Made by a program: the position numbers and the translations under genes. Positions 32,380 to 57,412 of a DNA stretch of 64,000 bases are shown piece by piece (the first letter of the stretch is position 1; the number at the start of each line of letters is the position of its first letter). The DNA comes from Eledone cirrhosa (lineage: Eukaryota), in assembly GCA_964016885.1 (NCBI GenBank), contig OZ024743.1, positions 323,144,001-323,208,000 on the forward strand, in the 5' to 3' direction. Below the pieces are notes generated by a model. It searched no databases and was not told the DNA's origin. It saw only the letters and a program-made list of their open reading frames with translations.

Positions 32380-32877
32380 TTTAAATGGGAAGTACACATT
32401 GGATAATGTGGTCCTGAATAAATGATGCTATGGTCACAGTTGGTGATAGGTGGCTCAATCAAGCTGTCTTGGAGTTAAACAAAAATAACATGTTAGTGTG
32501 TTTAAAAACATCTCTGCACACTCATCACCACATCAACATTATGTTTCGTTAGAGATATGGTAATGAAAGGATTGATTATATAATATTTTCTTGCGTTTAG
32601 TATGTCTTTAATAGCTCTGCAGTTATTCAAAACATTTTTCTGTGTTCATTTTTCATAATTTCACCTGTGAGACCCAAGATTCTCAAAATTATTTCATTAA
32701 GTCATTATATTTCATCTAATATTTATCATCAAATCACATTGTATGTCCTTATCAATACGACCGTGTCTTTGAGGAATGTGGCTCTTTGAATTATTGGAGG
32801 GTAGAAAATCATAATATCTACTCTACTTTCTGAAGAATTGAGTACTAACAGGATCTTAAAAGTCTTAACTAGTAACT

Positions 32878-32923
<46 letters not shown>

Positions 32924-32951
32924 AAAATCCGAAGGCAAGGTAAAATTCCAA

Positions 32952-33039
32952 TCATTTAATCACGACACATGTTTCAATAAGAGATAGATCGATTGTGAAG
33001 CCATGATCGATTATCACTGATCTCATCAGGTGAAAATGA
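32952..33039 (-). ncRNA. Type-I hammerhead ribozyme with long stem II
   Basis: ucauuu-UCAC CUGAUGA [G..gauaaucgau../aucgaucuauc..U] GAAA CA ug UG UC | GUGA-uu-aaauga; GUC cleavage triplet; palindromic ACAUGU in stem III. Confidence 0.75.
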
Positions 33040-34051
33040 ATTGTCTTCAAATTTTTGATATGAGGGAGAAAAAATAACGATGTTCTCTCACAGAATTCAT
33101 TCCCTCATATGGAGACACGGCGACTGCTATTAGCTTCAGTTGAGGTCATAAGTTTTCAGATTTCTATCGGTGCAAAAGACGCTGGACATCAATCAAATCT
33201 GTAGAGATACAGTCAGTCACAGTTAAAAGTGAGTGGGTACACACACACTCCACACCCACATACATCAGCTCGAGGTCAAAGAAAAATATATACATATATA
33301 TACACGCATCAACACAGTATTAAACCCGTAGAGTTAGTGTGGGTGGGTACACACACACTTTCACACACACCGAAGCGATGTCCGAGAAAAAAACAAATAT
33401 AATAAAACAAATATAAGAATGTACCAACACAGCAATCACCGAAAGTTAGTTCACAAAGCAACAGAAGCTATGTTGGTCAAATCTCAATTTGACGATGTAA
33501 ATTGGAAATATTGGGTTAACCAACGCCCCACGCACGCACGCACGCACGCACACACGCAAGTAAGTTCAGTTCAGTGTTCTGCTATACGTGTATAGATCGA
33601 ATTGTAACATCCATATCTTCAAGTGTATGTTATGGTATATACACATCCGAATCGTCCAAAAAAGGGTATGTCCGGGTATATACACATCCATGTGAAGAGC
33701 AAGCAATCAGCTCATGTCGAACTCCTTGTGTACTGCTGTCCCATTGAGAATCCGTGTCACCAAATCCGTGCATGCAAGCAACCGTAATGTAGGCCGGCAA
33801 AGGGCTCCCTGAAGGGTTGGGTATTGGGTAAATGTGTCCGCAAGTGCGATTTCACGTCATATGGGCCAATGAGCTTTTAAGATAATTGTTTGAGTGGTGG
33901 AGGTGTGTTATCCAACACAGAAGGTGAAGTAAGAAAACACAGGACAGTAAAATCCAAAGGATGTGTGTAGGCCCATTATATATATAATGTCCCAAGGCTC
34001 TGATACCATCGACACCAAAAACACAGAGTTGGCATATCTAAGAACTGACTA

Positions 34052-34107
34052 ACTGCCTGATGAGGTCATAGCCATTCAATGGTTATCATCGAAATATATA
34101 TAGCAGT
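34052..34107 (+). ncRNA. Minimal type-I hammerhead ribozyme
   Basis: ACUGC CUGAUGA [GGUcAUAGCCAU uca AUGGUUAUcAUC] GAAA UAUAUA UA | GCAGU; predicted cut after 34102. Confidence 0.82.
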
Positions 34108-34177
34108 AAATAAAGGATTATGATTTCATGCAATTGACTTATGTTTCGTCACTATATATATATATATATATATATTA

Positions 34178-34519
34178 TCATCATCATCATCATTTTACGT
34201 CCGCTTTTCCCTGCTTGCAAGGGTGGGATGGGAACTGATTCTGGCTTGATTTCTACAGATGGATGCCCTTCCTAACACCAACCTCATTTTTAGTGAGTGC
34301 TGGGTGCTTTTTTTTGCCGTGGCACCTCCACGACCACTTTGTAGTGGAATGATAGGGACCCCAGTCCCTATCATCTCATTTCTACACCTGAGTAAACTGG
34401 AGCAATGTGAAATAAAGTGTCTTGCTCAAGGAAACAACACATCACCCGGTCTGAGAATTGAACTCACAACCTTTCAATTGCAAGGCCAATGCCCTAACCA
34501 CTAAGCCATGTGCCTCCAT
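34178..34519 (-). mobile_element. tRNA-derived SINE
   Basis: Reverse complement of the 13942 family. Confidence 0.87.
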
Positions 34520-34572
34520 CCATATATATATAATTATATAGTAACTCCCTATATATATATAAATATATATAT

Positions 34573-56421: not shown

Positions 56422-57412
56422 ACAGTTTTAAGTCAGTCAGAATCTTGTGTTGAAATTTTCACACAAAAATGTCACAAAATATCAAGCGATTAAATTTTAA
56501 TGCAACTGTATCTTGTTTATTTTTCATTATTTATTAGTCATTAATCATTAAACATTATCAGTTATTTGTCTTTTCATTATTCTTAATCACCATTCATTAA
56601 TTATGGCCTTGGTTACTGACAAGTGGTTAATGAATAATGATGATGTCACAATCTTATGATTACATCATGATATGTGGTGATGATGTCAGTTTTGTGACGT
56701 CATGCTGTTGCGACAAAGCAGGATGTGACGAAACTTTCACACAAAAATGTCACAAAAATCAATCAACCAATAAAATTTGAATGTTTCTTTTGTTTAATTA
56801 TTTTTCATTAGTTATTAATCATTATTGATTAGTCATTGATCATCAGTCATTAGTCAAATCCCAGCAAAAACAAGGCTTTGCTATGAGCAAGGTATAGCAG
56901 GGCCACCTGGCCTCACCCTCCTAACGGAACCACCCAGTTCAACATGGTAAATGTGGTTGGTATAAACATGGCCAAGGTTTAGGGAGGGCATCCAGCTGTC
57001 GTATAAACCCATCCAAAACACTGTTATACTCTAAACAAGGTCCGGCGTATCCAACTGGCTAGACATGTCCCATAATAGTAGCAGCCAGTTCCACACTGTA
57101 AACATGGTTGGTTTTAGGAAGGGCTTCCAGCACCATAGAAACCCAGCCAAATTACTGTTCCATTTGGTACAGCATGGCCAACTGGCCAGACTTGTCTAAT
57201 AACATTGATAATAATCTTGATATTAGTTATAATATTGGTGGTGGTTTAAGTTACAATAGTGGTGGTGGTGATGATATGAGATAAGGTGGTGGTGGTGGTA
57301 TGAGTTTCAATAGTGGTGCTGGTGATGGTGGTATAGGGTGTGGTGGTTGTGGTATGGTGATGATAAATGACTAAATGACACTACCAATTGCTATTTCTTA
57401 TTTCATTTTCAG

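Follow-up and report, generated by a model that had tools for sequence, protein, structure and literature searches.

Outward-facing hammerhead motifs in a TA-flanked segment of Eledone cirrhosa DNA probably belong to two Penelope-like repeat families

A non-coding segment of about 1.2 kb in Eledone cirrhosa DNA carries a hammerhead motif at each end, one on either strand and both facing outward. Does such a segment descend from one RNA with a ribozyme in each polarity, or from two repeats that came to lie side by side? The first-pass annotation of the window (the whole 64,000-nucleotide stretch analyzed here) left both answers standing, proposing either the head-to-head fusion of two pLTR or retrozyme families at one site or a single family with ribozymes in both polarities. 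In our analysis the segment is most probably composed of fragments of two repeat families, likely the 5′-truncated pLTR ends of two Penelope-like elements (PLEs) that were probably inserted sequentially into a (TA)n tract. The observations that carry this reading are the two ribozyme cores, the join between the modules, the separate abundance and sequence partners of the two halves, and a third unrelated insert at the same site.

The segment is free of open reading frames, as initially described, with a longest stop-to-stop frame of 85 codons, and it is bounded by (TA)19 and (TA)11 tracts (Table 1). The 5′ boundary of the left copy at 33976 is set by the adjoining TA tract and not by a direct observation of the family's own 5′ end. 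A Pfam search in six frames of 33030-33976 gave nothing at the cut-off, and a lone sub-threshold row (E 0.13) was rejected as a coding remnant in the middle of the segment. Neither Penelope RT nor GIY-YIG sequence was found at the locus, which a truncated copy need not carry, and neither module has a further copy within the 64-kb window. The left family contains a 21-nt repeat (33229-33249 and 33339-33359, 110-bp spacing), and reads of the set termed X6 below show other arrangements between 33250 and 33422.

Table 1 Features of the segment and its flanks, in positions of the window.
Feature	Position	Strand	Basis or remark
Left TSD copy	32870..32892	none	11 unique bases and TA repeats, running into (TA)19
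(TA)19 tract, left flank	32881-32918
Left family copy, ~1.06 kb, non-coding	32919..33976	-	Read and contig depth, pieces, loose ends
Left type I hammerhead motif, GUC	32960..33033	-	Descriptor scan, folding
(TA)5 join of the two families	33977..33986	none	Loose ends at 33987/33988 in X4, X5 and X6
Right family copy, 166 bp, 5′-truncated	33987..34152	+	Depth and loose ends; most abundant part of the segment
Right type I hammerhead motif, AUA	34052..34107	+	Descriptor scan, folding
(TA)11 tract, right flank	34153..34174
SINE-like repeat, tRNA-like head	34177..34530	-	Third insert in the same TA site
Right TSD copy	34539..34561	none	23-nt match

A descriptor scan finds both type I cores with all conserved core letters intact, which bears out the original description of a left GUC hammerhead with a long stem II and a different right hammerhead with an AUA site. 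The left motif, on the minus strand, combines a 4-bp stem I, CUGAUGA starting at 33029, a 47-nt stem II with a closing G-U pair, GAAA, and a stem III of one C-G and one A-U pair, with a predicted cut after 32964. The right motif, on the plus strand, has a 5-bp stem I, CUGAUGA starting at 34057, a 27-nt stem II with a closing G-C pair, GAAA and UAUAUA, with a predicted cut after 34102. Chance is a poor source of such a pattern: dinucleotide shuffles of the segment produced any hit in 1 of 2000 cases and hits on both strands in 0 of 2000. At position 34083 most other copies of the right module have a C (304,617 of 306,617 depth units in X1 and 1330 of 1581 reads in X6), which replaces one G-U pair in stem II by G-C. 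A contig from a second organism (X5) matches the left module without a single difference over 113 bases (32918-33030).

The palindromic nature of stem III, also noted at first pass, has consequences for folding. The left stem III measures 2 bp in the monomer and can be extended to 8 bp in a homodimer, and the right stem III is an in-register 8-bp palindrome; the in-register 8-bp homodimer stems of the two motifs have computed energies of -5.2 and -7.4 kcal/mol. In the monomers, the fold constrained to the active shape lies above the free minimum by 3.8 kcal/mol (right) and 7.6 kcal/mol (left), so neither would adopt the active shape by default. The modeled homodimer stem III fits the dimer-dependent PLE hammerheads described in the available part of PMC4209133.

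Across the whole window the scan returns four intact type I cores, at 11522 (minus), 13436 (plus), 33029 (minus) and 34057 (plus), which form two outward-facing pairs with no solo core in the 64 kb. A relaxed scan adds a single motif at 56677, which has a mismatch in its core and falls within the background of 0-6 hits across 20 block shuffles. Rfam gave no match in the window at the gathering score, and none of its 8 matches down to E 10 was a hammerhead. Short-motif matches in viral contigs (2, 2 and 0), metagenomes (11) and prokaryote genomes (0) were discarded as chance hits, all 15 spanning 19-25 nt. The other outward pair belongs to a palindrome at 11437-13521 that is 94.6% self-complementary over ~2.1 kb and bears identical GUU hammerheads; it disrupts a LINE that carries an RT and has, next to its left TA tract, a tandem duplication of 19 bp (11369-11407). 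The two arms of our segment are unlike each other, with a longest match of 13 nt (E 0.25), and share only short A/T-rich matches with this palindrome, in agreement with the earlier comparison.

Whether the two halves belong together elsewhere can be read from public data. Four of the eight listed runs, from three studies and two organism labels, were aligned to 32907-34164 at 85% likeness: three contig sets (X1, X4 and X5) and one set of reduced-representation reads (X6) that is shaped by cut sites. Contig depth is not copy number and serves here solely to define relative tiers. The comparison draws on 24 of the 292 loose ends, 24 of the 2030 pieces and 40 of the 158 differences, the X1 pieces among them being at most 165 nt long. 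Many X6 reads start or end at GCATGC and AATT sites, from which we infer the enzymes and treat such ends as library cuts; on this basis we also set aside three loose ends of X6 (32944, 33042 and 34135, with an agreement of 0.34-0.45).

All four data sets show three depth tiers. The medians for the left core, the middle and the right module are 82,928, 5,189 and 329,363 in X1; 174, 3.1 and 553 in X4; 12.3, 0 and 33.8 in X5; and 700, 68 and 1449 in X6. The left core is thus 10-56 times deeper than the middle in X1, X4 and X6, and the 3′ ~160 bp of the left copy (32918 to about 33075) are far more abundant than its remainder. Overlapping pieces at 32987-33115 and 33112-33266 connect the left ribozyme to the middle, as does an indel allele to which X1 loose ends at 33112 and 33118 (5 and 7 contigs) correspond, and therefore the tiers represent two families, not three. 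We gave little weight to an X1 joint at 32978-33171 that occurs in one contig with a side of 24.

The halves also have different partners. At 33987, copies of the right module elsewhere continue into a different upstream sequence common to X4, X5 and X6, supported by 560 X6 reads and by single contigs of X5 and of X4, in which the switch lies at 33988. The last letter of this upstream sequence also predominates at the join base itself (33986), where it is carried by 32 of 33 reads in X6 and by 185 of 232 depth units in X1. The other 47 X1 units have the letter of the window; they amount to 2.9% of the depth recorded at 33933 and to 0.05% of the depth at 34011. None of the pieces or joints listed bridges 33986, though a rare low-copy joined form could be hidden. 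At the other end, left-family copies elsewhere extend beyond 32918 into shared non-TA sequence (190 X6 reads, one X4 and one X5 contig), and in one X4 contig the left module gives way at 33108 to a TA/TG microsatellite, forming a solo short copy.

These data locate the junction that the first-pass annotation had asked for in the (TA)5 tract, within a 16-bp palindrome at 33974-33989, and, as far as the listed pieces reach, speak against a co-occurrence of the halves at other loci: their depths differ, their partners are others, and no listed piece spans the join. Separate depths and partners support the proposal of two different pLTR-type families placed head-to-head at one site. The word "fused" is too strong, as a TA tract lies between the two parts. 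The proposed end signals ATTAAA (32960-32955) and AATAAA (34109-34114) are present, but a poly(A) signal with a TA tail was rejected for the left module because its copies elsewhere run on in non-TA sequence at 32918. As the template of the left family continues past this point, its end would mark the start of copying inside a longer RNA, with the TA representing target DNA and not a tail.

Two further patterns concern the right module. Over 34098-34131, which begins 4 nt before the right cut, contigs of X1, X4 and X5 join a different shared upstream sequence and the 5′ part of the ribozyme is missing; X1 depth rises beyond the cut site. This pattern possibly reflects a ribozyme-less family with the same 3′ end. 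Single X4 contigs retain the right ribozyme but switch to other sequence immediately ahead of it (34055) or directly past stem I (34106); the right core thus seems to be common to several subfamilies.

One intact core per strand within 1.2 kb of non-coding DNA is what could be expected of a single viroid-like or HDV-like unit that replicates as a circular RNA with one ribozyme per polarity. The depth data are at odds with such a unit, as the depths of the two halves differ by a factor of 2 to 4, each half is set apart from the middle by a factor of 10 or more, and both have other partners. Moreover, the segment has no terminal repeat, and with one ribozyme per strand two cuts would release neither a unit-length monomer nor a circle. 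Circular folds show no rod-like character and no gain in stability over shuffled sequences, with z values of -1.35 and -0.31 and 57% and 61% of bases paired (15 shuffles for each strand). Both motifs are type I, while the animal HDV-like hammerhead circles described in the accessible part of PMC7936874 use type III. We regard this reading, the second of the two offered initially, as largely refuted and its truth as very improbable.

The flanks bear on how the two families met. The sequences at 32870-32892 and 34539-34561 match exactly over 23 nt, and 34 of 35 positions agree over 32870-32904. This one target-site duplication (TSD), which like the internal (TA)5 join was absent from the earlier description, encloses the left module, the right module and the SINE-like repeat together. 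The SINE-like repeat, which has a weak tRNA match (20.3 bits, under the gathering score), occurs in three further near-full copies in the window with 82-95% identity, all flanked by TA-rich tracts and all devoid of hammerhead modules. Since a single duplication brackets all three inserts and the other SINE copies have no modules, one TA site has received three unrelated insertions.

The common duplication could also be expected if the stacked pair had arisen once and had then been copied as a low-copy unit, possibly with the SINE, making this locus a secondary copy. The 47 X1 depth units that retain the letter of the window at the join are compatible with such copies, but they can also be left-family contigs that end in TA. 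The join is unbridged by any listed piece or joint, and the three near-full SINE copies in the window without modules likewise speak against a mobile composite. We consider this origin quite improbable.

A different possibility is the arrival of both modules in a single event: a Penelope-type protein would have cleaved the TA target on its two strands and used each end to prime on a different RNA. The pair would then be a mixed-family twin of the palindrome near 11430 and the footprint of one two-ended priming event. Its outward geometry is the same as that of the palindrome, both modules begin with ATG directly after the join, which creates the 16-bp palindrome there, and, according to the part of PMC11167929 available to us, a purified PLE protein, itself a predicted dimer, can cut as well as extend both strands in vitro. 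The occurrence of all four intact cores in outward pairs, with none alone in the window, also counts against our preferred reading, as it is not favored by pure chance. In a crude equal-chance model with three events among the 27 TA loci of the window, the probability of a shared locus is ~0.11 for at least one pair of them and ~0.04 for a specified pair. However, the (TA)5 at the join is what is expected of target DNA left between two insertions, and because the center of the palindrome has no such TA, it argues against a single event with two templates. The third unrelated insert further indicates that the site was hit repeatedly. We therefore judge a single event to be unlikely, if less so than the copying of a ready-made pair. 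If it were true, the inverted structures typical of Penelope elements would result from two templates and not from the fold-back of one.

Under the preferred reading of sequential insertion, a Penelope-type RT and endonuclease supplied in trans would cut the TA tract, and reverse transcription would start inside each RNA downstream of the cut site, at 45 nt in the left family and 50 nt in the right. Copying would proceed back over ~1060 nt (left) and 166 nt (right) and then stop. The two families would have inserted in turn at one target, each insertion leaving TA on both sides, so that the site stayed a target. With its 2-bp stem III, each ribozyme would depend on another member of its family for good cleavage; given one ribozyme per strand, the locus itself is probably a passive fossil.

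Several properties of the modules correspond to those of PLE ends. The available part of PMC4209133 (Cervera and de la Pena 2014) describes hammerheads in the pLTRs of metazoan PLEs, dispersed truncated copies, and Schistosoma hammerhead pairs on opposite strands about 100-700 bp apart. Our motifs share with these the type I fold, a 4-5 bp helix I, a long helix II and a small palindromic helix III suited to dimers, and they too occur as dispersed single motifs and in opposite-strand pairs. Compared with the Schistosoma pairs, the two motifs of our segment lie farther apart (~1030 bp); they come from two unrelated families. They further differ from the hammerheads of that source in having no extra base between positions 9 and 10.1 and, in the left motif, a stem II closed by G-U.

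The mode of insertion is comparable as well. From what is accessible of PMC11167929 (Frangieh et al. 2024), a purified PLE protein cuts AT-rich DNA and initiates reverse transcription at an internal RNA position that lies downstream of the hammerhead. As for PAc (Poseidon, Anolis) in that work, copies here terminate at a fixed internal position of the RNA, beyond the ribozyme in the downstream direction, and occupy AT-rich targets, with TA flanking each module; an end within a longer template is seen for the left family only. In PAc, copying begins 111-118 nt into the ORF and the ribozyme cuts at +26, whereas the ends here lie 45 and 50 nt past the cut. PLE insertions are commonly 5′-truncated, inverted and biased toward microsatellites, according to the consulted portion of PMC8557442. 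Truncation at the 5′ side, with the ribozyme end as the commonest part, is likewise found here, the right module being cut off at 33987. That the modules work like PLE ends is well supported, and their membership of PLE families is likely.

Three unrelated hammerhead families in the window end at similar distances past the cut, 45, 50 and 50 nt (32919-32963, 34103-34152 and 11435-11484, the last being the left arm of the palindrome), with TA following and an ATG within 20 nt after each cut site. These common 45-50 nt ends suggest that reverse transcription starts with the same geometry in all three families; in PAc it starts further away.

Other ribozyme-bearing RNAs show partial resemblance. 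Animal non-LTR retrozymes, as far as the available parts of PMC7229834 and bioRxiv 10.64898/2026.07.22.740005 describe them, are also non-coding, type I, high in copy number and PLE-related, and solo monomers occur. They are, however, built of head-to-tail repeats with a ribozyme per unit, and the tandem array is absent from our locus, so the label "retrozyme" does not apply in its strict sense. The HDV- and viroid-like circles of PMC7936874 and PMC7761336, again in the parts at hand, likewise have one ribozyme per strand, but each of them is one circular replicon of rod-like shape that uses type III hammerheads or HDV ribozymes, in contrast to the two independent genomic repeats found here. 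In the literature searched, by titles and the beginnings of abstracts, we found neither mixed-family hammerhead pairs nor the present families.

The arrangement is thus an ordinary one and not a viroid-like RNA; it adds two further hammerhead-bearing repeat families and a TA hot spot that was hit three times. It calls for caution in scans of animal DNA for ribozymes in both polarities, because stacked Penelope-type ends produce the same pattern. Mixed-family outward pairs would matter more if they were enriched genome-wide, because they would then bear on how Penelope elements make inverted insertions, a mechanism treated as unresolved in the available parts of the papers cited.

Elsewhere in the window, plus-strand exons at ~44700, 53100, 57400 and 60900 belong to what we take, by their motifs, to be a furin-type proprotein convertase. 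The exon at ~60900 gives a weak subtilase match (E 0.054).
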